Assembly (NCBI GenBank): GCA_027262695.1
Contig: GCA_027262695.1_4722.1
Source: a phage
Direction: 5' to 3' (one strand)
Length of the DNA: 64,000 bases
Shown: positions 7,247 through 59,860 of the stretch, in pieces
Layout: every line of letters starts with the position of its first letter
How positions within the stretch are numbered: position 1 is the stretch's first letter
The notes under the pieces: generated by a model
Told to the model about the DNA's origin: nothing
Databases searched by the model: none
The model's input: only the letters and a program-made list of their open reading frames with translations
Program-made: the position numbers and the translations under genes

Positions 7247-7262
7247 TGCAAAGGTAACATAA

Positions 7263-7294
7263 CCCTCCTCCTTCCCTTACGGGTTGGAGGAGGG
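7263..7294. promoter_or_regulatory. 32-bp GC-rich stem-loop, exact copy of 53421-53452
   Basis: ccctcctccttcccttacgggttggaggaggg between convergent gene ends. Confidence 0.65.
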
Positions 7295-7311
7295 TATATG
7301 CTGTTATGCTA

Positions 7312-12988: not shown

Positions 12989-15900
12989 TTACTTTTTGAG
13001 CGCTTTAAGTTCTTCTTCCAACGCTTCCACTTTTGCCGTAAGCTTCTGTACTTGTTTGATTAATGGAACCACCAAACGTTCGTACATAACACCTTCAGCG
13101 ACGAGTCCGTTAGAAGAAACGATGGCGGGGTCATCTTCTTCGGTTGCATCACGCCAGTGCACGTATTGTGGTGCTATCTCACCAACCTCTTCGGCAATCA
13201 ACCCATACCAACCCCAATCCTTGTTGTCCGCTTCGCAGGTAGAACGATACCAAACAGGACGCATCTCCAATACTTTATCCGCTTGTTCATCCGTGATATT
13301 CTCGATATCTTTCTTATAGCGACGTGACGACGTTGAACGGAACACATTGTTGATCCCAGCAACAGGACTGATATACATATTAGCCCCGCTGGTTGTAGTG
13401 CTAATGTCCCATACCGCAAATCCGCCGTTACTCCCATTTTTTACTACCAACGTATTGGCAATAATGTCCAGGTTATTGTCGTACCCGGTTAACTGGTTTT
13501 CCGTTACATAACTGGATAGGTTAACCGAGTAGTTCTTACTGTTATAACAACGACGCCATCCTGGGCTGTTGGTGCTGCCGTTATAGTTGTCGTAGCTATA
13601 AATGAACTCGGAGTTGGTTTTCGCACCACTGACGGAAGATGTGGTTGCGGTGGTAACACGGATGGTGTAGTTTGTCATCCCGAAGCTAACGACCTCGATA
13701 ACAGCGCCAGCCAGAGGGATGATCCCGCATTTGGTTTCACTGTCTGGGATGTATGCGCTATCGGCAGCAGCGAAGGAGCAACGTGCGACCCAAGCACGAG
13801 TGTTGAAGGCTCCATGGTTTTGCAGTAATGTGATAAACGAGGACGTTGTAATCGAGCTGTTATTATCACCGGTGATCAACCAGCCGGTTGGACATGCAGT
13901 TGCACCAACGTTTTTCGCTGTTAGCGTGATGTTCTGTGATCCGTCGAAGGCTACGCCGCTAATAGTACGCGCAGTCTGTAGCTTCGTCGCCGTTGCTGCG
14001 TTCCCTGACGTGTTCTGGTTCCCTGCTGTGTTAACACCCGGCAGATCGATGTTTGCACTACCATCGAAAGACACCCCACCAATCGTTCTTGCCGTTTGCA
14101 ACTTCGTTGCGGATGCCGCATTCCCTGTGGTGTTTTGGTTGCCTGTTGTATTCACACCCGGGATACTATCCTTAGATGTGTAGATCTGTGCCCATTCCGA
14201 CCAGTTCGCATCGGTTGTATCGCGACGTGAACGTAAATAAGCTGGAGCGTGCGCACCCGAGGTACCCGACCATCCAATGAGGATTTCGCCTTCGCCGACC
14301 GATGAAGCACCTTTAAGATGAACAACGTTACCGTAGGCTGTAGGGTATCCGTTATTGTACGCTTCATACATCTGGATACCCGTGTTGCTGCCCTGGGTCG
14401 CATTAGCTAAAGCGGTGACCCGTCCCTTGGAAGCGAGCGCGTTAATGCTAAAGCTAATATCAGTTGTACCATCAAAGGCGACCCCATTAATCTTCCGTGC
14501 TGTTTGGAGTTTCGTGGCAGTGGCCGCATTACCAGAGGTACTCTGATTACCTGCTTTGTTCACGCCTGGTAAATCAATGTTGGCGGTTCCATCGAAGCTG
14601 ACGCCGCCTATTGTTCTTGCTGTAGCGAGTTTCGTTGCTGTGGTTGCAGCATTACCAACCTTTAACCATTCGCCCCATGGACCATCGATGCCGTTCCATG
14701 ATGCTGTTAAACTACGTACGTAAATATTTCCGGTACGTACAGTGTAACGTTGCGTTCCACCGAACTGTCCAGCTGGGAGCACTTCGATATAACCTACCGC
14801 GTTTGCTTCAGGGAAATTGTGGGCAACATCAGCATTCGTTGATGTTTGTTTAGACCAAATACCTACGGACTCCTCTACCGGACCGTAGGTATCCAGATTT
14901 GCGTCGGTGGGGAGCTGTCCTCGAAAACGTCGGAATAATGATGCTGTTAACCCCAACGTTGTTTGCATTCCTTGAACGCTTGACTGCGATAAAAGCGCCC
15001 GCGCTGTCGACGTAATGGCAGCTAAAGCAACCTTGTCGGCTCCGGTGAAAAATGGGAATTTGTTCGCCGAGGTCGTTAAGCCTGAAAGGGCTGTTAGTAA
15101 TGCGTTAAGGGGTTGTTTTCCGGCTAACGCGTTAGTTATCGTCGTTGCGAAATTAGGATCGTTGCCTAAAGCTTGAGCCAGCTCATTAAGCGTATTTAGC
15201 GCTTCTGGAGACGAGTCAATCAGCGACGCGATAGCACGCATTACAAATTCCGTGTTGGCAATCTGTTGACTGCTATCATTCTCTGCAGCCGTGGGCGCTG
15301 CTGGGATACCGGTGAATACAGGGTTATTAAGATCTGCCTTGAGGGCGATGAGACGTCTAAGCGCTTCAACATCGACTCTCAGGTTTTCCCATCCGACGAG
15401 ATAACCTTCACCGGTTGTGTGATAACGGTTGTACCAAAAATCGCCATTAACACCGAAAAAGAATATTCCCTTCTCTTCGTATTGTGGGTCAGAACCGTTC
15501 CGCGATGAGCTAATGTATTTTATTTCGATAAGGCCGTCTAATACCACTCCTGGGATAATTTTGTCGTTTCCATGCGATTGTGATACCTGGTACACCCCCG
15601 GCGTTGCGGTTCTAATCCACGTTAAGAATTCCGATGTTCCAGCGTTACCGCTAAAATGCTTGACGTCGGTGAGTATCGCACCAAAACCGAACATACCTGG
15701 TAAAGCAACTCGTCCATCGGTACGGTCACGAATATCTGTCGCAACAACGGGCAATTGTTTACGAACGTCATTAACCGCTTTAGGTGTTGCTGATTTTGTC
15801 TCGTCGTCGCTATCAATATCATTGCTCAGGATGGTCAGTCCTCGAGTATCTGTGGTTGCATCAGGAAGAAACGCATTATCCAACACCTTAAGCTGTATTG

Positions 15901-16306
15901 CATCCGTGTTACTAACAGCAACATACACCTGGCAGTTAAGAACGCTGGTTGCGCCTTCGGTGGGCACAGGCTTATATCTTTCTGGTGCGCTGCAGACGGC
16001 GACCAGAACACCTTGATCGTCATACAGACCGATCTCACGTACCCAGAACCCACCTTGACTGGTGGGAATAATGCCTTCAACAATAATCCGGGTTGTGTCG
16101 TCAACATCAATGCGGATGTTGGAAACTTCCCCACGATAAACTTCGTGTATAAGTGCCGTTTGGCTAGCATCGGGGGTTGGTGTAGAGCCGTTACTGTCAC
16201 CAACGGCAAAATGCGTGATTTTTAGTTTCTCACCGTCAGGAAGTAATGCTGCGGTGATACGTTCTGCGCCTTTATCGGTAATAACCGTTTTATATGTTGT
16301 ACTCAT
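12989..16306 (-). CDS. long tail fibre: P2 gpH-like N-terminal domain, tandem fibre repeats, C-terminal S74-type intramolecular chaperone
   Basis: 1105 aa; N-terminus MSTTYKTVITDKGAERITAALLPDGEKLKITHFAVGDSNG matches tail-collar fibre proteins; repeated ATKLQTARTIxGVxFDG units; C-terminus YGLIAEEVGEIAPQYVH with coiled-coil tail typical of the autocleaving chaperone domain. Confidence 0.8.
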   Translation of the reverse strand: MSTTYKTVITDKGAERITAALLPDGEKLKITHFAVGDSNGSTPTPDASQTALIHEVYRGEVSNIRIDVDDTTRIIVEGIIPTSQGGFWVREIGLYDDQGVLVAVCSAPERYKPVPTEGATSVLNCQVYVAVSNTDAIQLKVLDNAFLPDATTDTRGLTILSNDIDSDDETKSATPKAVNDVRKQLPVVATDIRDRTDGRVALPGMFGFGAILTDVKHFSGNAGTSEFLTWIRTATPGVYQVSQSHGNDKIIPGVVLDGLIEIKYISSSRNGSDPQYEEKGIFFFGVNGDFWYNRYHTTGEGYLVGWENLRVDVEALRRLIALKADLNNPVFTGIPAAPTAAENDSSQQIANTEFVMRAIASLIDSSPEALNTLNELAQALGNDPNFATTITNALAGKQPLNALLTALSGLTTSANKFPFFTGADKVALAAITSTARALLSQSSVQGMQTTLGLTASLFRRFRGQLPTDANLDTYGPVEESVGIWSKQTSTNADVAHNFPEANAVGYIEVLPAGQFGGTQRYTVRTGNIYVRSLTASWNGIDGPWGEWLKVGNAATTATKLATARTIGGVSFDGTANIDLPGVNKAGNQSTSGNAATATKLQTARKINGVAFDGTTDISFSINALASKGRVTALANATQGSNTGIQMYEAYNNGYPTAYGNVVHLKGASSVGEGEILIGWSGTSGAHAPAYLRSRRDTTDANWSEWAQIYTSKDSIPGVNTTGNQNTTGNAASATKLQTARTIGGVSFDGSANIDLPGVNTAGNQNTSGNAATATKLQTARTISGVAFDGSQNITLTAKNVGATACPTGWLITGDNNSSITTSSFITLLQNHGAFNTRAWVARCSFAAADSAYIPDSETKCGIIPLAGAVIEVVSFGMTNYTIRVTTATTSSVSGAKTNSEFIYSYDNYNGSTNSPGWRRCYNSKNYSVNLSSYVTENQLTGYDNNLDIIANTLVVKNGSNGGFAVWDISTTTSGANMYISPVAGINNVFRSTSSRRYKKDIENITDEQADKVLEMRPVWYRSTCEADNKDWGWYGLIAEEVGEIAPQYVHWRDATEEDDPAIVSSNGLVAEGVMYERLVVPLIKQVQKLTAKVEALEEELKALKK
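13880..14640 (-). repeat. two blocks of degenerate ~66-bp tandem repeats inside the long fibre gene (phage tail fibre repeat units)
   Basis: Recurrent DNA units such as ccatcgaa(a/g)g(a/c)cac(c/g)ccacc(a/t)at.gt.cttgc and corresponding protein repeats NIDLPGVNxAGNQxTSGNAATATKLQTAR. Confidence 0.6.
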
Positions 16307-16312
16307 GGCGTT

Positions 16313-16840
16313 TTATCCCGGGTAAATAGCGATGACATCACCAATGACAGTTGCCGCACCAGCGTATAAATAAGCTGGAGATGCCTCACGTTGGTTTGTC
16401 ACGGTAAGATCCAATTGTCCACGCCAAACCATGGAGGTATTCGCGATGGGAATCGAGATCTTCTTGGATGTGTCGTCACGAAAATCAATGACAGTAGCAA
16501 GGATAGCTGAATCAAAATCGACATCGGTTTCAAAGATGAATCCGTACTGATCTGAAATAGCTTGTATAACCGCTCTTATAGTTGTTGTTTCAACCGACTC
16601 CAAAACGATTTTTATCGGTATCCCTAGAAACGCTTTCGCGATATCACGTCGTGCGTAAGTGATAAAACTTTCACCACACCACCTTGTTCCTTCATTTGCT
16701 GTGACGATCACTTTTGCCCTGTTAGCACCAGAACTCCCATCCAGGGTTAAAGTGAGATCGGAGTTACTGAACACGCTACCGTTACGTTGGTTTATCAACG
16801 TAATCAGTTCGTCTTTCCACGGCAGGTAAAGTGAACGCAT
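16313..16840 (-). CDS. tail fibre N-terminal attachment-domain protein (putative adaptor)
   Basis: 175 aa from ATG 16840 (GGAGG RBS); contains shared motif YARRDIAKAFLGIPIKIV; stop 6 nt before start of long fibre gene. Confidence 0.55.
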   Translation of the reverse strand: MRSLYLPWKDELITLINQRNGSVFSNSDLTLTLDGSSGANRAKVIVTANEGTRWCGESFITYARRDIAKAFLGIPIKIVLESVETTTIRAVIQAISDQYGFIFETDVDFDSAILATVIDFRDDTSKKISIPIANTSMVWRGQLDLTVTNQREASPAYLYAGAATVIGDVIAIYPG

Positions 16841-16953
16841 AAGCGCACCCTCCTCCAACAATCAAATTAAGATGCAAAACGCCTCGAAACCGGAGTGCGA
16901 TTCGAGGCAAACGTAAACAGTCTTAACGACCGCATAAAATTCCGCGCATATTA

Positions 16954-16965
16954 CCCCCCCCCCCC
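16954..16965. repeat. C12 homopolymer (G12 on coding strand), intergenic
   Basis: Twelve consecutive C between stop of 16997-18751 and start of 16313-16840. Confidence 0.9.
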
Positions 16966-16996
16966 TCGCTTCGTCGAGGTAGGGGAGGATAACACT

Positions 16997-18751
16997 TTAT
17001 GCCGCTACATACCCAGGCCAACGTTCTCTTGGCCAGTTTGTTGCGCCCTGTCCAACGTTGTCCTTACCAGAAGTTACATTACTTACGTCCCAACCACTAA
17101 GATCCTGGTTAAATGCGGTGTTGTTGCGCATCATGAGGTCGATCCTACGTAACGATTGGGTATTCCAGCCGGAAATGTCTTGGTTGAATGCCGCGTTGTA
17201 AGCAAACATGTTAACAACGTCTTGTAATTTTGAAGTGTTCCAGCCGCTTATATCGCTATTGAACTGCATGTTCGAGAACATACTGCTAGCGTTGACAAGA
17301 CTACCTGTTTTCCAGTTAACCAGCTTGTCCCCATCAAGTGCATCGCAGCTACTGAACATGTAACTCATGTCGTTAACTTTGGATACATCCCATTTATCTA
17401 ACCCGTTACCAACGAACTCGTAACAAGCTTGGAACATCCAGCTCATATCGGTAACCTGGCTCACATTCCATTTGCTAAAGTCGAGGTTGAGTTTTGCGCA
17501 TCCGGAGAAGGTTTTATACATACTGGTGATACGACTAACATCCCATTCTTGAATGTTAGGATCATTAAGTATAGATAAGAATTGGAACAATTCGTCTAAC
17601 GACGTCCATTTCTCTGGAATACGGTTTGGTACTGTACGGAGCGATGAAAGGTTATTGGTTGACGGAGAGCGGAACATACCGTTATCCCAATTTACGATTT
17701 CCGTAATGTTGTACCCACGGATCGTTTGGCGTCCATTACCATTATACACAGACCCTGTTGCAGTTATTGTATATTCGTTTGTATCAGCATACGTATGTTC
17801 AGCCTGTGTAGGCCACTCACCTATTACATCCCTATTCCCATCACCCCAATCGATGGAAATATCTGTCCAACCATCAAGATCTAGGGTAACGGTCCCGCCA
17901 TTGGTCTTCAGGACGTATTTACCTGCATTGTCGGTATAATAACAAACAATCATCGCACCGTACAGGTTACCAATTTGCCAATCATCCTTTTGAGTTACCG
18001 CGATATGTGCTGTGCCACGTTGTAGGAAAAGAACCGTACGGTTCTCGTCAGTCTGTAATGCGGTTAGTGCCTGAGTCTTATCATCGTCGGTAATTTCACC
18101 GGCTTCCACTAAAGCACTTAACATTCTTTCGAAGTATTCGATGGGTAATTGGCGTCCTACAGACATATCAACTGATGGAACAGCGAGATCATCCAATGCG
18201 GCGGCAGTTGCAAGCACTAATGATCCATTGGTGGTGCCTGTTTCTTGGAGGTAACGCAGTCCCGTAATCTGGTACGCTTGAATGATTGTAATCAGATCCA
18301 GCGTATCGTTAATGACCTGTACTTGTAAATGTCCAGACCAAACATAGCTGCTTTCAGCAATCGGTAATTCGACCGACTGAATACCCGATGTTTCAAAACT
18401 GATCTTCTTATTAAGATCGGCTTCCAGGAAATCAACCGCGAGGTCGAAATTTATACCGTACTTTTCAGCGATGGAATCTATGATGTTCCTGAAAGCAACA
18501 TCGGTACTTACGATGAATCGTAAAGGGATTCCTGTGAACGCATTAGCAATATCTCGACGAACATACGTAAGTGATTGTTCGAAGAAATAGGGACTGTTAT
18601 CTCCAGGTTTGATGGTTACCTGACACATTTCAGGATGTTCAGATGGGATGAACGATTCAAATTTAACATCGGATTCCTTCAACGAAAGCATGTTCTTCCG
18701 GTTTACCAGCGCCAGAAGATCGGCTTTCCATCCAGGATAAACAGTAGACAT
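16997..18751 (-). CDS. tail fibre protein with C-terminal DUF285-type (WxVSxVTxMxxMF) repeats
   Basis: Start at ATG 18751 (GGAG RBS); N-terminal shared domain (YVRRDIANAFTGIPLRFIV); C-terminal repeats KWNVSQVTDMSWMF, DISGWNTSKLQDVVNMF, DLSGWDVSNVTS. Confidence 0.65.
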   Translation of the reverse strand: MSTVYPGWKADLLALVNRKNMLSLKESDVKFESFIPSEHPEMCQVTIKPGDNSPYFFEQSLTYVRRDIANAFTGIPLRFIVSTDVAFRNIIDSIAEKYGINFDLAVDFLEADLNKKISFETSGIQSVELPIAESSYVWSGHLQVQVINDTLDLITIIQAYQITGLRYLQETGTTNGSLVLATAAALDDLAVPSVDMSVGRQLPIEYFERMLSALVEAGEITDDDKTQALTALQTDENRTVLFLQRGTAHIAVTQKDDWQIGNLYGAMIVCYYTDNAGKYVLKTNGGTVTLDLDGWTDISIDWGDGNRDVIGEWPTQAEHTYADTNEYTITATGSVYNGNGRQTIRGYNITEIVNWDNGMFRSPSTNNLSSLRTVPNRIPEKWTSLDELFQFLSILNDPNIQEWDVSRITSMYKTFSGCAKLNLDFSKWNVSQVTDMSWMFQACYEFVGNGLDKWDVSKVNDMSYMFSSCDALDGDKLVNWKTGSLVNASSMFSNMQFNSDISGWNTSKLQDVVNMFAYNAAFNQDISGWNTQSLRRIDLMMRNNTAFNQDLSGWDVSNVTSGKDNVGQGATNWPRERWPGYVAA

Positions 18752-18789: not shown

Positions 18790-21700
18790 TTAAATTGTCG
18801 GTTTCACGTCGCGTAATAGGGCAATATAATAGCCTAATCCTCGGAGGATCTCCCCACTCCAGAAACCAAAATACATTCCGTCTCTGCCGAGATTAGCACT
18901 ATCTGGTGCAGGACTCCACCCACCATTCATTGCGTCATCAACGGTGTAATGATTGATGTAGTTTTCAGCGATCTCGTTATAAACGTTAACAGCAACAGGA
19001 TAGCCTTTATCGTTGGGATGTCCGTACAACATCGCTAACGACGCACCCGCCAGCCATAATCCTGCCATGTGACCAGTAAAGTCATTCGGGATAAACGCAG
19101 GCGGTTTCTCCATTGGAAAATCCGTTGGTGATTGATAAGCATTTTCCTGCTGGAACGTATATAAGAAATCGATCCAATGACTGATGTAATGGGTTAACTT
19201 CTCAGGGACAGTTAATTTACGATCGATCAATCCCGCGTAAAGCCGTACCGCTGAAAAGAAAGCCCGCGGCTGATAACCAGACCATGCTGTTTGATCGCCG
19301 AAGTGGTACATCGTAAAATCATTGACCTTTGATCCGCTTGGCGCATCCCAACGATCCCACACGTACGCACTCGCACCCGGCCCTAAAACACCGAACTTCT
19401 GATAGTACCATTGCTGTGAGTCATACCAGAAATCCACAACATTCTGAATCATGAGGTCACGACGTTCAGCCGAAACGTCCATATCCAGGAAGACCCACGG
19501 ATGCTGGTAACCCGGATAAGGCTGACCACGCCAGCTGTCGAAAGTCGGTGCATTAGGGATATAGTTGTTCGAGAACGGAATAATACCTGGGGTATAAGGT
19601 AGTGGATCAAGACGTTGGTTAACAATCGTGCAGTCACCAACACGTAATGTTCCTTCCGCTTCAAAGGTTGCTTTCAATGTAAACAGCATGGTATATCCGT
19701 CATCCGTGGCGTAAGTTGATGGTGGATTGTTGATAGCGTAAAGCTTAAACATACCTTCAGCAACACCGCTGTCATCTGGCAAGAACAGAATTTCGGTTGA
19801 ACCATCACCCCATACCGGCGCAGAAGGTTTAGGATCGGTATCAGCATGATTCGGTTGATATCCTGAAAGTGTCCAACCATCAGCAGCGAGCGTTAAGGTA
19901 CTTCGTGCTGTAGTGGTGGGGAGCATCTGCCACCAGCGCCAACCATTTGCATCTTCTACACGGACGTTGTAATCGATCGATGCGAAATAACTGATCTGCC
20001 TTACGATCTGCTTTGCCGTTGGATTGAATTCAAATTGCCCGCCTGCCGCAGTAAGCTGCGCTTTTAAGAACAGCCCATCCCAGGAATCTTCCACAGCTTC
20101 GCTGAACTCCGTGGTGATTGCCACGTCATCCTTCCAGCCGACTTTATCCGCCGATATCAATACAGAACCTGTAACAGCATCACCGGTTGGCGTTGAAGCT
20201 TCATCAACCGCATCAGCAGGAATCAACGCGCCTATTTTGAAATCCCATTCTTTCGGTTCAACGCTGGAAGGTAATACCAGCTTGTACGTTTTGGCTTTCG
20301 CTTCGGTTTTGTCCAAAGAAAGCGATAGTGAGATCTCAACCGGAATTGCAACGCCCGCTGCATCTTTACCTCCGCAGGTTACACGAAGAATTGAATCGCG
20401 ATTGACGCGGAACGGAATGGCCTGCTGTTCAAGGTAAATCTGTGCCGAAGATGCTTGAATCACGATCCAACCGTCAACATCACGTGTGATCGTGAACGGT
20501 GCTTTCGATGGATAGGTATACGTGTAAGCGATACCGTCGGTGTCGTAACGATCGGTTCCTTTTACCTGGCGGAAGAACTTGTCATTCGCATCAATGCGGG
20601 TATATTCCTCAATCGTAAACAAAGATGCCTTATACGCTTTCTGATAGCGCTCCTGCTGCGTTAAACGGTATAAGGTGTAGGCTGCTTCACAAAACCACTG
20701 TTCAGCGTCTGATGCGTTTCCCATGTAGTCTCTGGTGACCGGTACCTGAATTGGTCGGTTATGCTGACACTCATTCGTTTTAATGAGATATCCGCCATAT
20801 TCAACAGGTACACGGGGTGCCCATGCAACCAAATAAGAACCGGTAACGGATTTATCTTTGAGTACGATAGTCCCTACCTCGTCATCCGCACACGCCTCAA
20901 GATCTTCACCGTCCGCTGTTACGTAACGTTTTGTCCGCAACGCCACTTTCTCAATAGGGAATACGGTACCTTTTGTATTCCAGTCAATCGTCCCATTTTC
21001 ATTCGTCTTGAACACATCCGCATTTAGATTTTGCCATCCAAGCTTACCCTCATAGACCTGAACAACAAGATCCATGTATTCCCCGAACGTTGGTGAACCG
21101 TGAGGGATCTTACCGATTCCGTTGGTAAACACAACCGCGGTATCATGGAAACCACCATGTGTTGGGTAATCGTCTTTCGCAAGCGGGTAATGAGCCAACA
21201 CCGGCTGTTTCCCATTAACAATCCAGTTTGCTATCCAACGTGTTGGGGTATCCGGTGGTTCAAGTCCTGCATAGAACGCTTTTACGTACGCGTCGAACGA
21301 TGATTCCGCTAACGTAAGAAAATGGGCTTTAAGCTGGGTATCGTCGGTCGTATGACTGAAAATGCTTGCACCCAGGATTAACAACGATTGTCCTTCCGTT
21401 GTCGCGTCGCCATCCGGTTGTGCTTCCTGACGCGTTGCTGCGATAAAGTGACGGTTATTCACCAACACACCGCTTTCATTCAAGACGTAATGATCGGTTT
21501 CAGGATCGGTAAACGTTCCTGTATTTCGCGTTAAGAAGCGAGCGTGGCCGTAACCAACGAAATTCACCGGAGACGCTGTGATCATCCATTTACCGATAAG
21601 TTGTGCGACGTCCTTATAACGTTCCGACGCCGCGATCTGTTTTACGTACCAGTCTTGTCGATTGAACGTCCAAAGCAGGAAGTAATACGTCTTATTGATC

Positions 21701-22386
21701 TCCATTACCGGAAACGTGGGCGTCAACGGTTCCAACGTTAAATAGTTACTCCAGTCAATCTGACCACCAACAACCGACGGGGTGATTTCAAGCAGTTGGC
21801 ACCATTCGTAACGTTTCGGTTTCGCATCGTAGGTAACTGGCAATGACTGTTTATACGTTCCGACACGGTTCAGGTTGTACTTCTTCCTGGCCGATCCTAA
21901 ATCAACGTAAATGCTAGAACTCGAACTCGCTCCGTATGTACCTAAACCACCCAACGTTGAACGGTACAATGAAATAAACAACGTATCTTCCCAGTAGGGA
22001 TTATCCTCGGTAGGTTCTAACGCAATCTGAGCGGATATCGAGTTCCATGTACCGAGTTGATACGTTGCGTCGAGAGATTCATCCGTGAAGTACGACTCTG
22101 GTAAGCTGAGTTGATACCTTTCGTTAATTAATGCTAACGCGGCACGACCCGTAATATCTTCATTACCAGTTTCTTTCTTTACGATCGCGCCGAATGGAAA
22201 CAACGTTGCAAATGAACGTTTTGGTTTATTTACGGTTACCGTTCCTGTGTAGCTTCCTGTTCCCGTGAGTTGTTGGCCATCAACTGTTGCGGTAACGTTG
22301 ATAGTCGCATCTGGAACGTTCGTTTTGTTGAGCGTGTTTAGTTGCTCGATCAGTTCGCGTTTATCGTCAGGCAGAAATGTTGCCAT
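18790..22386 (-). CDS. large tail fibre/tailspike protein (1198 aa), distal domain of unknown activity
   Basis: Longest ORF in window, within fibre locus; N-terminal region weakly similar in pattern to shared attachment domain. Confidence 0.6.
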   Translation of the reverse strand: MATFLPDDKRELIEQLNTLNKTNVPDATINVTATVDGQQLTGTGSYTGTVTVNKPKRSFATLFPFGAIVKKETGNEDITGRAALALINERYQLSLPESYFTDESLDATYQLGTWNSISAQIALEPTEDNPYWEDTLFISLYRSTLGGLGTYGASSSSSIYVDLGSARKKYNLNRVGTYKQSLPVTYDAKPKRYEWCQLLEITPSVVGGQIDWSNYLTLEPLTPTFPVMEINKTYYFLLWTFNRQDWYVKQIAASERYKDVAQLIGKWMITASPVNFVGYGHARFLTRNTGTFTDPETDHYVLNESGVLVNNRHFIAATRQEAQPDGDATTEGQSLLILGASIFSHTTDDTQLKAHFLTLAESSFDAYVKAFYAGLEPPDTPTRWIANWIVNGKQPVLAHYPLAKDDYPTHGGFHDTAVVFTNGIGKIPHGSPTFGEYMDLVVQVYEGKLGWQNLNADVFKTNENGTIDWNTKGTVFPIEKVALRTKRYVTADGEDLEACADDEVGTIVLKDKSVTGSYLVAWAPRVPVEYGGYLIKTNECQHNRPIQVPVTRDYMGNASDAEQWFCEAAYTLYRLTQQERYQKAYKASLFTIEEYTRIDANDKFFRQVKGTDRYDTDGIAYTYTYPSKAPFTITRDVDGWIVIQASSAQIYLEQQAIPFRVNRDSILRVTCGGKDAAGVAIPVEISLSLSLDKTEAKAKTYKLVLPSSVEPKEWDFKIGALIPADAVDEASTPTGDAVTGSVLISADKVGWKDDVAITTEFSEAVEDSWDGLFLKAQLTAAGGQFEFNPTAKQIVRQISYFASIDYNVRVEDANGWRWWQMLPTTTARSTLTLAADGWTLSGYQPNHADTDPKPSAPVWGDGSTEILFLPDDSGVAEGMFKLYAINNPPSTYATDDGYTMLFTLKATFEAEGTLRVGDCTIVNQRLDPLPYTPGIIPFSNNYIPNAPTFDSWRGQPYPGYQHPWVFLDMDVSAERRDLMIQNVVDFWYDSQQWYYQKFGVLGPGASAYVWDRWDAPSGSKVNDFTMYHFGDQTAWSGYQPRAFFSAVRLYAGLIDRKLTVPEKLTHYISHWIDFLYTFQQENAYQSPTDFPMEKPPAFIPNDFTGHMAGLWLAGASLAMLYGHPNDKGYPVAVNVYNEIAENYINHYTVDDAMNGGWSPAPDSANLGRDGMYFGFWSGEILRGLGYYIALLRDVKPTI

Positions 22387-23220: not shown

Positions 23221-23307
23221 TTTTTGACCTCGTAACTTATAAATATAACGGAGGACTGAATTCATACCATGGGAGAGGCGAAAAAAAAAAACGAAAAAAT
23301 AGGAAAA

Positions 23308-25544: not shown

Positions 25545-25598
25545 GGTGGTTTCCTTTTTAACTAGGATGATTGCATATACAGGGTTTAACGGCATAAA

Positions 25599-25616
25599 CC
25601 CTCCCCGGAGGGAGGG
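25599..25616. promoter_or_regulatory. short GC-rich stem-loop preceded by GGCATAAA
   Basis: ccctccccggagggaggg. Confidence 0.5.
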
Positions 25617-25633
25617 CATACGAACAGTTCGAT

Positions 25634-28860: not shown

Positions 28861-28937
28861 AATTACATCCTCTTAATACGGATTGATTTTAGATTGATAA
28901 CAACATAACAGCCCTCCGAAGTGGAGGGCCTGGTTAA

Positions 28938-33176: not shown

Positions 33177-33202
33177 TTCTTTTCCTTCTTATCGGCATAA
33201 AC

Positions 33203-33220
33203 CCTCCCATACCGGGAGGG
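33203..33220. promoter_or_regulatory. short GC-rich stem-loop preceded by GGCATAAA
   Basis: ccctcccataccgggaggg. Confidence 0.5.
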
Positions 33221-33225
33221 TACAA

Positions 33226-40145: not shown

Positions 40146-40410
40146 TTACACCAGACGGCACAACCACACCAGTACGAATCACTGCTGCGATTTCCTGCAT
40201 CGCTTTGCCTTTCAACGCAAAGGTTTCGTATACAACAGCACGTCGGGTTGTTAAACCCACAAACTTACAGACGACCATGTTGTCTTCTGAAAGATAAGCG
40301 GTTTCCAATTCACCATGTAACAGTTCTTTTTCTCGAGTATCAATGCCCATTAAGGCAATTTGATAGGCAGATAGTTTCCAATAACGCATATTCATCCTAC
40401 TTGTAAACAA
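40096..40410 (-). CDS. hypothetical protein
   Basis: 104-aa ORF; overlaps downstream ORF start, true start uncertain. Confidence 0.4.
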   Translation of the reverse strand: MFTSRMNMRYWKLSAYQIALMGIDTREKELLHGELETAYLSEDNMVVCKFVGLTTRRAVVYETFALKGKAMQEIAAVIRTGVVVPSGVSDDLDEVLHGTRKTAC

Positions 40411-41223
40411 TCAAATATTCCGAAACCGAGTTCCTCGTTTCTACTTTAGCCGAGATCATTCTCCTTACCGTAATCGGATGAAATTCTGATGCGGTACTAT
40501 AGATTTCTTCAACCAATGGGCACGTACTATTACTGATTACGGTAGGGATACCCTGCCTACGAAGTTTGTCGGCCGTTTCTGCAAGGTATCGGTGGTCATC
40601 CAACGTGAATCCTTCCTTGGTATAACCTGTAAAAGAGGCTGTGGTCGAAATAGGGATATACGGCGGGTCGCAATATACGACATCGCCCGATCTCACGTTT
40701 TCGAGGTGTCGTCTAAACCCACCACGTACAATTTCCACCCCCCCCCCCTCTCGACGGTGGTACGAAGATGGTTAGCAGCCGCCCGTAATTCGTATTTCGG
40801 ACAATAGATCGTCTTGTATCGTCCGTGTGCGACGTTAAATAATCCGTTTTGGTTATAGCGACACAAACCATTGAATCCGTAACGGTTCAGGTATATGAAA
40901 CACACCGCACGTTCCCAAGGATCGTTGCTTTGATTAAAACGGTCGCGCACCTCGTAATAACGTTTAACGTCTTCCGGCGCAATTTGGAATAAACGTTCAA
41001 CACCCTCAATGAATTGTTTCGGACATGTCACCAACGCTCTCCAAACATTAAGGATATCCTCGTTAGCATCCCCAATGGAATAACTAGGATATTTCAGTGA
41101 AAGCGTCACCGCACCAGAGCCGACGAACGGTTCAACCAAACGCTTTCCATCCGGCAACACATTCCTAATTTCAGGGATAAGTTTGGTTTTGTTACCCAAC
41201 CATTTAAGAAACGTTTTATTCAT
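40397..41223 (-). CDS. dam: DNA adenine methyltransferase (Dam family), reading frame interrupted inside a G11 homopolymer
   Basis: N-terminal ORF has LKWLGNKTKL and EPFVGSGAV (SAM binding); second ORF in +1 frame has VVYCDPPYIP catalytic motif; frames meet in C11 tract 40738-40748. Confidence 0.8.
40738..40748. repeat. C11 homopolymer (G11 on coding strand) inside dam
   Basis: Eleven consecutive C counted across line break 40738-40748. Confidence 0.9.
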
Positions 41224-51069: not shown

Positions 51070-51143
51070 TTTAATCTCCTCTCCTGGCTTCAGAGAATTC
51101 TTAAAATCCGTTAGTTTTGATAGATAGGGTAAGACGGCATAAA

Positions 51144-51164
51144 AGCCTCCCATTACGGGAGGCT
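51144..51164. promoter_or_regulatory. short GC-rich stem-loop preceded by GGCATAAA
   Basis: agcctcccattacgggaggct. Confidence 0.5.
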
Positions 51165-53410: not shown

Positions 53411-53420
53411 ACAAACATAA

Positions 53421-53452
53421 CCCTCCTCCTTCCCTTACGGGTTGGAGGAGGG
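53421..53452. promoter_or_regulatory. 32-bp GC-rich stem-loop, exact copy of 7263-7294
   Basis: ccctcctccttcccttacgggttggaggaggg; flanks also conserved (acataa before, tatgctgttat after). Confidence 0.65.
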
Positions 53453-53462
53453 GATTATGCTG

Positions 53463-53777
53463 TTATTCTGTTTTAGGTGACGAACCGTTCTTCTTGAAGT
53501 CGGATTCGTATTTCACATTAGAATCGAGAACCTCACGAACGGTTTTATCTGTACAACCGCGGGCGATATACGCGTTCAAATCGTCACGCAATTTACGCAT
53601 CGTTGTTTTATCCACATCAGAAACATCTGACTTGGTAAGACGGAATGCAATCGCATCACGAATTTTATTCAACGTTGCTGGATTATTACGCTGCTCTGCA
53701 AATACCGCTTTGATGAAGGTACCGCTGTCTTTCGAAGCAACGGCAGCATCAAGAATCTCAATATGCTTTTCAGACAT
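53463..53777 (-). CDS. hypothetical protein
   Basis: 104-aa ORF. Confidence 0.45.
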   Translation of the reverse strand: MSEKHIEILDAAVASKDSGTFIKAVFAEQRNNPATLNKIRDAIAFRLTKSDVSDVDKTTMRKLRDDLNAYIARGCTDKTVREVLDSNVKYESDFKKNGSSPKTE

Positions 53778-59802: not shown

Positions 59803-59842
59803 CGTCACCTCCTTTAATAAGTAGCAGGAATGCGGCATAGAA

Positions 59843-59860
59843 CCCTCCCCGGAGGGAGGG
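59843..59860. promoter_or_regulatory. short GC-rich stem-loop preceded by GGCATAGA
   Basis: ccctccccggagggaggg. Confidence 0.5.

Follow-up and report, generated by a model that had tools for sequence, protein, structure and literature searches.

We analyzed a stretch of phage DNA of 64,000 nucleotides (nt), contig GCA_027262695.1_4722.1 of NCBI GenBank assembly GCA_027262695.1 and hereafter the window, in which a run of twelve identical bases lies between a fiber gene and a smaller gene downstream of it. The run occupies positions 16954-16965, in exactly the place and of exactly the length given in the original prediction, which had been made from the sequence alone; it reads C12 on the plus strand and G12 on the minus strand. 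The minus strand is the transcribed one, and the local genes, from a gp92 homologue of 1198 amino acids (aa; 18790-22386) to a tail fiber protein of 1105 aa (12989-16306), are all encoded on it. The window is a relative of the Escherichia jumbo phage vB_EcoM_Goslar (Chimalliviridae), to which it is ~87% identical across the intergenic stretch and the gene downstream. Goslar was the sole relative found among the INPHARED phages; IMG/VR yielded Goslar, one Goslar-like contig and one distant contig, and no relatives were found in GTDB genomes, complete E. coli genomes or PLSDB plasmids.

The gene that ends just ahead of the tract (16997-18751, minus strand) encodes a protein of 584 aa, a length also seen in public contigs, with Pfam matches, listed in this order, to DUF7941 at the N-terminus (E = 2e-20) and to DUF285/BspA-like repeats (E = 6e-45). 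Its stop codon (16999-16997) lies 31 nt before the tract; the placement originally proposed, just after the stop of a DUF285 fiber gene, is therefore right as to position, but the gene combines DUF7941 with DUF285 rather than carrying DUF285 alone. The downstream gene (16313-16840, minus strand) encodes 175 aa, consists of a DUF7941 module only and is a homologue of Goslar gp91. Its start codon is the ATG at 16840, with GGAGGAGGG ahead of it as ribosome-binding site, and the same start is annotated in Goslar gp91 and in public contigs. The gap between the tract and this ATG is 113 nt, not the roughly 90 nt first estimated, a figure that fits an in-frame TTG further upstream at 16861. In the Goslar virion, gp91, gp92 and other DUF7941 proteins have been placed in a head-to-tail 'fibre cloud' that is thought to function in host recognition (bioRxiv 10.64898/2026.04.21.720040).

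Long G or C runs are indeed as rare in this DNA as had been claimed. The only other runs of at least nine in the window are C11 at 40738-40748 and A11 at 23281-23291, and G or C runs of 6-10 occur nowhere in it. When the window was simulated 200 times with a first-order Markov model, G/C runs of at least 11 appeared with a mean of 0.005 per window, against the two observed, and for runs of at least six the expectation was 9.0 for G/C (two observed) and 60 for A/T (13 observed). Chance cannot plausibly account for the C12 tract, and homopolymers are otherwise avoided in this genome. Across the whole window, homopolymers of at least six are 4-5 fold rarer than its composition predicts.

Read on the minus strand, the region after the fiber gene runs TAA-AGTGTTAT-CCTCCCCTACCTCG-ACGAAG-CGA-G12-TAATATG-CGCGGAATTTTATG. 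Counted at the arm CCTCCCCTACCTCG, a hairpin starts 8 nt past the stop codon of the DUF7941-DUF285 gene, and its other end adjoins a TATG motif. A short hairpin had been described as bracketing the tract, and this stem-loop, CCTCG-ACGAAG-CGAGG, does exist, but it is the inner part of a larger hairpin (16948-16995, minus strand) whose 3' arm is the G run itself. Folding and covariation delimit this larger RNA hairpin as a lower stem (GUGUUAU/UAAUAU), an outer stem (CCUCCCCU/G run), an inner stem (CCUCG/CGAGG) and a 6-nt loop. The pyrimidine-rich 5' arm CCTCCCCTACCTCG spans 16975-16988, the loop ACGAAG, which in some relatives is replaced by its reverse complement CTTCGT, spans 16969-16974, and the G12 run together with CGA (16966-16968) makes up the descending 3' arm. 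Within the outer stem, G-C and G.U pairs join the G run to CCUCCCCUACC (16988-16978), with A x G as the single mismatch, and below it UAAUAU is paired with GUGUUA.

The minus-strand RNA folds at a predicted -32.7 kcal/mol (z = -4.25), and 0 of 200 shuffled sequences were as stable, whereas the plus-strand RNA reaches -18.7 kcal/mol (z = -1.65) and under DNA parameters, which give the fold -12.3 kcal/mol (z = -2.06), both strands are weak. Across 14 distinct alleles, 96.6% of pair cells hold standard pairs, versus 54-71% when the partners are slid by 1-3 columns, and two pairs have compensatory changes on both sides that pass through G.U intermediates (U-A, U.G, C-G). From this strand-specific fold, and from the pairing and covariation across alleles, it follows that the hairpin is a conserved RNA structure of the transcribed strand. 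Rfam 15 gave no covariance-model match at E <= 1 in 16600-17200. Other roles for the tract were considered and dropped. A single G12 run could form two tetrads at most, no further G blocks lie nearby and G8 alleles exist, which removes a G-quadruplex; a plus-strand open reading frame (ORF) at 16895-17152, in which the tract would encode poly-proline, is antisense to the end of the fiber gene and is not conserved; and a minus-strand ORF opening at the first TATG has 8 codons in the window, against 55 in some relatives, and is not conserved either.

The form of this hairpin recalls the terminators of jumbo phages of the same family. In phiKZ, ONT-cappable-seq defined 61 intrinsic terminators with the motif 5'-BCCYCCCCHWWDGGGRRGGBYTTATKYYGT-3' (Putzeys et al. 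2024, PMC10914365), and the terminators of 201phi2-1 carry a similar motif (PMC11512511). The window contains one match to the full phiKZ motif at 2 mismatches (0 expected) and nine matches to its 3' half of 18 nt at up to 2 mismatches (0.19 expected). A scan for hairpins with a stem of at least 7 base pairs and a G-rich 3' arm ending 0-3 nt before (A/T)TATG found 11 minus-strand sites, the G12 element among them, against 0.73 expected. Nine of 13 family sites lie 16-57 nt past a same-strand stop codon; for the G12 element this distance is 35 nt. Its 5' arm contains CCTCCCC (16988-16982, minus strand; CCTCCCCT), its first seven nucleotides matching CCYCCCC exactly, its G-rich 3' arm is the counterpart of GGGRRGG and pairs with CCUCCCCU in RNA of the transcribed strand, and, as in phiKZ and 201phi2-1, (A/T)TAT(G) follows directly upon the stem and the site falls just past a stop codon. 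By this analogy the G12 hairpin is probably a divergent member of the chimallivirus (phiKZ-type) class of intrinsic terminators, and the scan, the half-motif matches and the published motif together support a position of the tract in a terminator-type hairpin just past the fiber gene.

About 12 further copies of this motif class occur in the window and match it better than the G12 element does. The family sites at 571-636, 1106-1155, 7254-7304, 25589-25630, 28900-28930, 33192-33221, 51134-51163, 53412-53463 and 59832-59860 are C/T-rich : G/A-rich hairpins followed by TTATG-YYGT, in agreement with the published phiKZ terminator motif. At three of them (1106-1155, 7254-7304 and 53412-53463) the motif is present on both strands, and many are bounded by CATAA...TTATG, which extends the palindrome. 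Nested inner stems like that of the G12 element are found in other members as well, for example those at 53412, 7254 and 571. A simple scan for sigma-70 promoters found none in 16300-17500, and its two matches resembling canonical terminators lie elsewhere than the tract.

Two TATG motifs follow the hairpin. The first (16947-16950, minus strand), in the TAATATG adjoining the G run, is invariant in all ~40 related loci, a divergent lineage included, and may serve as the TTAT(G) tail of the terminator, as the core of a phiKZ-type late promoter with G16947 as its putative start, or as both. The second (16933-16936, minus strand) lies 14 nt further on within GAATTTTATG; it is kept in Goslar and in the divergent P0030 lineage, whose 5' untranslated region (5'UTR) is otherwise replaced, and the relative at locus L015 has TGTG. 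The late promoters used by the non-virion RNA polymerase (nvRNAP) of phiKZ have a TATG core, the G of which is the transcription start (PMC4666361, PMC12809450); the core is necessary but not sufficient (PMC4666361), and the enzyme opens DNA from about -11 (PMC12809450). The tract here occupies -7 to -18 relative to the first TATG. Since two conserved TATG motifs stand past the hairpin, the small downstream gene probably has its own promoter, for which the second motif would be the likelier late promoter in view of its AT-rich upstream context. By analogy with phiKZ, the whole region looks like a terminator-promoter module.

The second stem-loop of the original prediction, with its U-rich tail, is present at 16908-16869. 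It consists of the arms GCCTCGAA and TTCGAGGC around a 12-nt loop, followed by the tail GTTTTGCATCTT (GUUUUGCAUCUU), and its predicted fold has z = -2.19. It is nearly identical in Goslar and almost invariant in Goslar-type genomes, and it is missing from the P0030 lineage. Its position, downstream of the TATG motifs but ahead of the small gene's ribosome-binding site, puts it in the presumed 5'UTR, where it might represent an attenuator or a short RNA like those reported from the 5'UTRs of phiKZ.

Relatives found through the exact 175-aa protein, in independent samples, made it possible to compare the tract between genomes; over the 900 nt that follow the hairpin they do not differ from the window, apart from L013 (0.1% divergent) and L015 (0.3%). 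Five samples carry the allele GGTAGGGGGG, in which the arm is not homopolymeric but interrupted by TA (CGAGGTAGGGGGG, the perfect complement of CCCCTACCTCG), with the loop CTTCGT in two and ACGAAG in three. In the near-identical set we found CGA-G8 (ERZ27275458), CGA-G11 (SRR22857735 and SRR32599953) and CGA-G12 (SRR22175737 and the window itself); G10 and G11 occur with the CTTCGT loop in genomes that are 3-4% divergent, and within the tight clade around the window (up to 4% divergence in the upstream gene) the tract is 8, 11 or 12 long. In a divergent lineage, with 74-82% identity in the DUF285 protein, the small gene is a different one, the 5' arm reads CCTCCTCC(TCC)TACCTCG and the tracts are G12, G12, G11, G11, G8, G8 and G9, and Goslar-type genomes have the arm GGGGTAGAGGGG or close variants of it. 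The 14 complete poly-G alleles comprise four of 12, five of 11, three of 8 and one each of 10 and 9, nine of the 14 thus being 11 or 12 long. With the tract found as G8, G9, G10, G11, G12 or the TA allele in relatives from independent samples, the claim that it is hypermutable is borne out.

Each loop orientation is found with each arm type (TA or poly-G), giving four combinations in all, which means homoplasy through recurrent mutation and points to repeated inversion of the loop or template switching. G8 is the exact product of deleting TA from GG-TA-GGGGGG, suggesting a series that runs from the TA allele to G8 and then to expansion. The element also shows a second change of repeat number, with 5' arms of (CCT)3-TACCTCG and (CCT)4-TACCTCG in different groups (L054 2570-2600 compared with L043).

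A tract of this kind might be suspected to be an artefact of sequencing or assembly, either a miscounted homopolymer or the poly-G produced by two-color Illumina chemistry. In favor of this, one G8 allele (L048) stems from long reads whose assembly was polished with Polypolish, some platforms make errors large enough to account for differences of 1 nt, and two assemblies end at the tract: GCA_026066175.1 (L016 and L042) has one contig that ends just before it and another that starts 10 nt after it, and a contig of SRR14057249 (L049) ends inside it. Against this, G11 or G12 with correct flanks appears in nine independent short-read assemblies from different studies, lengths vary from 8 to 12, the contigs within which the tract lies are 40-250 kilobases (kb) long, and two-color poly-G runs on to the end of the read without a return to correct sequence. 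We reject an artefact, which seems to us extremely improbable, as the source of a tract that independent assemblies reproduce together with its flanks. The breaks at the hairpin tract hint at heterogeneity, or at a loss of coverage specific to it. In GCA_026066175.1 a G12 tract in dam was assembled through, unlike the hairpin tract.

What the length variation means can be judged against the other long runs of the window. The A11/T11 run at 23281-23291 lies in the U-rich tail that follows the hairpin GGTGTTCATCC/GGATGAACACC of another terminator. Among five relatives it reads T10, T11, T11, T10 and T13, and an adjacent T6 run is 6, 8 or 9 long; the A5 loop varies between 4 and 5. Variation of the hairpin tract is no greater than that of this comparable T run, and because the latter is equally polymorphic, length polymorphism alone says nothing about function. 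It is a general property of long homopolymers in this phage population.

The C11 run behaves differently in its consequences. On the minus strand it is a G11 (40738-40748) inside the dam gene for a D12-class adenine methyltransferase (40397-41223), which in the window it splits into ORFs of 176 and 113 aa, confirming that the second long run interrupts dam. In the window and ten near-identical contigs, the spacer that follows GTCGAG is 9, 11 or 12 nt long in seven genomes, where the gene is split, and 10 or 13 nt long in four, where it is intact (274-275 aa). A change of A to G (GAGA-Gn to GA-Gn) also lengthens the dam run. Judged by these alleles, the dam tract looks like an on/off contingency locus or, alternatively, like part of a gene under relaxed selection.

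For the intergenic tract we propose, with moderate confidence, that a terminator arm has turned into a slippery homopolymer that is tolerated as a partly compensatory by-product, with no role as an on/off switch. On this view transcription of the DUF7941-DUF285 gene would end at the purine 3' arm of a phiKZ-type terminator, directly past which come the putative TATG promoter motif or motifs of the next fiber gene. The arm was likely CGAGGTAGGGGGG in the ancestor, a perfect complement of CCCCTACCTCG; loss of the TA would have joined its two G blocks into G8, and the resulting homopolymer would then slip in replication to give G8-G12. Since the 5' arm is all pyrimidine save one A, poly-G can pair with it in any register through G-C and G.U pairs, and register-free pairing of this kind leaves the last G, beside UAAUAU, as the end of the stem at every tract length. 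The hairpin could in this manner outlast every change in length, while selection for stem stability probably favors the 11-12 nt needed to fill the 5' arm and so holds most alleles near that length.

Predicted folding energies agree with this proposal. All alleles fold very stably, at -27 to -37 kcal/mol in contexts of 66-71 nt and at -23.2 to -32.7 kcal/mol in a 60-nt series. In the lineage of the window the values are -23.2 for n = 8, -31.6 for n = 11, -32.7 for n = 12 and -32.0 for n = 13, with -29.2 for the TA allele, and in the divergent lineage the predicted stability peaks at n = 13.

Several observations weigh against our proposal. The G12 element departs from the phiKZ motif in that a nested insert of 20 nt (TACCTCG-ACGAAG-CGA) replaces the 4-nt HWWD loop, and in having ATATG for TTATG and the tail GCGCG for KYYGT; owing to its 5 mismatches to the 18-nt half motif it is not among the half-motif matches at up to 2 mismatches, although one other family member (7287-7304) has the ATATG variant. 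It is by analogy with phiKZ and 201phi2-1 that we infer terminator activity in this E. coli phage. The direction from the TA to the poly-G allele is tentative: every pairing of loop and arm type exists, and for a tree the downstream flank is identical by construction and the upstream gene mosaic. The poly-G arm is present in two lineages that are ~18-26% apart in the neighboring protein, despite the 4-5 fold depletion of homopolymers, which fits retention or recurrent origin better than a fleeting accident. Lastly, L054 has the longer (CCT)4 5' arm yet only G9, and three alleles are G8; the argument from a stability optimum is not tight.

The original prediction had gone further and suggested that a hypermutable tract at this position could modulate termination or read-through into the downstream fiber genes. 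Hypermutability and a position in a terminator-type hairpin are supported; an effect of tract length on termination or read-through finds no support, given that all alleles fold stably, that conserved TATG motifs, probably of a separate promoter, follow and that the T11 run is equally variable. In its developed form this would be a contingency (bet-hedging) element: slippage of the G run would adjust how strong the terminator is, or how readily the abutting TATG promoter melts or is used, and sub-populations of phage would come to differ in their expression of the downstream DUF7941 module and the long tail fiber genes. Several observations speak for it. The tract is long, hypermutable and situated between host-recognition genes; it persists or recurs in two diverged lineages of a genome purged of G/C runs; the second poly-G does switch dam, which is intact or split according to length; predicted hairpin stability shifts by ~10 kcal/mol from G8 to G12; the G12/C12 duplex at -7 to -18 of the first TATG overlies the region from which phiKZ nvRNAP opens DNA, about -11 (PMC12809450); and there are precedents for poly-G and homopolymer contingency loci in phages (Sorensen 2021, Cell Rep 35:109214; PMC12633550). 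Yet every allele forms a very stable hairpin whose base ends at the last G, leaving terminator geometry unchanged, phiKZ-type promoters lack an upstream element whose spacing the tract could alter, and 14 nt on there is a second conserved TATG with AT-rich surroundings. Polymorphism is as high in the T-run control, and the TA allele coexists with poly-G in otherwise identical genomes, so the tract is dispensable. We consider a contingency role of the tract, though the foremost rival to our proposal, unlikely. Bolder still would be a poly-G contingency set in Goslar-like jumbo phages, pairing the dam switch with a register-free terminator arm that tunes read-through or promoter opening into receptor-recognition genes and thereby yields a mixed burst; we regard this as a speculative and rather improbable idea.

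The genes on either side vary among relatives. The DUF7941-DUF285 gene is missing from Goslar and several other relatives, which keep the hairpin region. Genomes without it (Goslar, L001 6640-6760, was compared) retain only the ribosome-binding site GGAGTG and a short ...GCATAA before the hairpin, and where the gene is present its C-terminal half differs by 1-20% among genomes with an identical downstream gene, which suggests, from these comparisons, a swappable and fast-evolving cassette. The downstream tail fiber genes encode 929, 1009, 1105 or 1225 aa among genomes (loci L007-L016) that share the identical 175-aa protein, and lengths of up to 1480 aa are called in other lineages, whose small gene may differ; such differences indicate a likely exchange of receptor-binding modules. 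Contigs of the same jumbo phage (54-248 kb) lie inside the NCBI assemblies GCA_026066175.1, GCA_015624795.1, GCA_027262755.1 and GCA_041200565.1. For the DUF285 protein, the source of GCA_026066175.1 is named as Escherichia coli O157 and that of GCA_041200565.1 as Escherichia coli; where these assemblies are E. coli isolates, this suggests phage carriage or contamination of the culture.

The mosaic structure of this region raises another reading, in which the palindrome acts at the level of DNA, as a hot spot of recombination or template switching at the boundary of an exchangeable fiber cassette, and the poly-G would be a scar left by such events and no part of an RNA signal. Relatives differ in whether they have the DUF285 gene, with the breakpoint 10-25 nt upstream of the hairpin, the upstream gene is 1-20% divergent where the 900 nt downstream are identical, both loop orientations in all four arm combinations would record repeated template switching, and two assemblies break at the tract. 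The weak DNA fold is difficult to reconcile with such an element, however, as are the conserved G.U wobbles and the pairing of poly-G with pyrimidines, which work only in RNA of the transcribed strand, and the hairpin-TATG module recurs past about a dozen unrelated genes. We therefore hold a DNA-level element to be very unlikely and return to a slippery terminator arm as the preferred reading.

If that preferred reading is true, a chimallivirus of E. coli has its genome punctuated by the same terminator motif that was mapped in the Pseudomonas phages phiKZ and 201phi2-1, and the natural allelic series (a perfect stem, G8-G12 and both loops) would suit tests of how a non-canonical RNA polymerase terminates and restarts. 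It would also mean that no regulatory meaning should be given to homopolymers of differing length in phage assemblies until a neutral control has been examined. Should the tract instead tune read-through into the fiber genes, it would count as a viral contingency locus of an uncommon, non-coding kind and tie in with the interest in phage bet-hedging: a length-variable terminator that would give differing fiber stoichiometry within one burst.

Quasi-palindromes provide one comparison with known systems. Template-switch mutation and inversion of hairpin loops are familiar from quasi-palindromes of E. coli and from chloroplast hairpins. As in those systems, the loop here is ACGAAG or CTTCGT between identical arms in near-identical genomes, and the arm is perfectly or imperfectly complementary; unlike in them, the phenomenon is deduced from natural alleles only. 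Compared with the phiKZ terminators themselves, the 3' arm is distinctive in being a pure homopolymer of variable length, and in the literature we found no described terminator with a length-variable homopolymer arm.

Bacterial contingency loci offer a second comparison. In the poly-C tract of Bordetella fim and the poly-G tracts of Neisseria porA and opc, the length of the run sets the spacing between promoter elements, either -35 and -10 or an activator site and -10. The G12 tract resembles these in being an intergenic G/C homopolymer beside a promoter-like motif and upstream of a surface or adhesion gene. It does not lie between two promoter elements, however, and phiKZ-type late promoters, unlike the bacterial ones, consist of TATG at the start site only; hence no promoter spacing is at stake.

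The closest phage parallels are the hypermutable polyG tracts of Campylobacter Fletchervirus phages, which lie inside reading frames and switch genes on and off by frameshift (Sorensen et al. 2021, Cell Rep 35:109214), and the homopolymeric contingency loci of T2 and T4, which likewise lie within reading frames and act by frameshift switching (Gomez, Barrick and Waters 2025, PMC12633550). The tract analyzed here shares with both that it is a homopolymer of a lytic phage near host-recognition genes whose length changes between close relatives; it differs in being intergenic and cannot shift a frame. Within the same genome, their true analogue is the tract in dam (40738-40748), which leaves the gene in frame in 4 of 11 near-identical genomes and puts it out of frame in the other 7, and it is there that the stronger lead on contingency lies.

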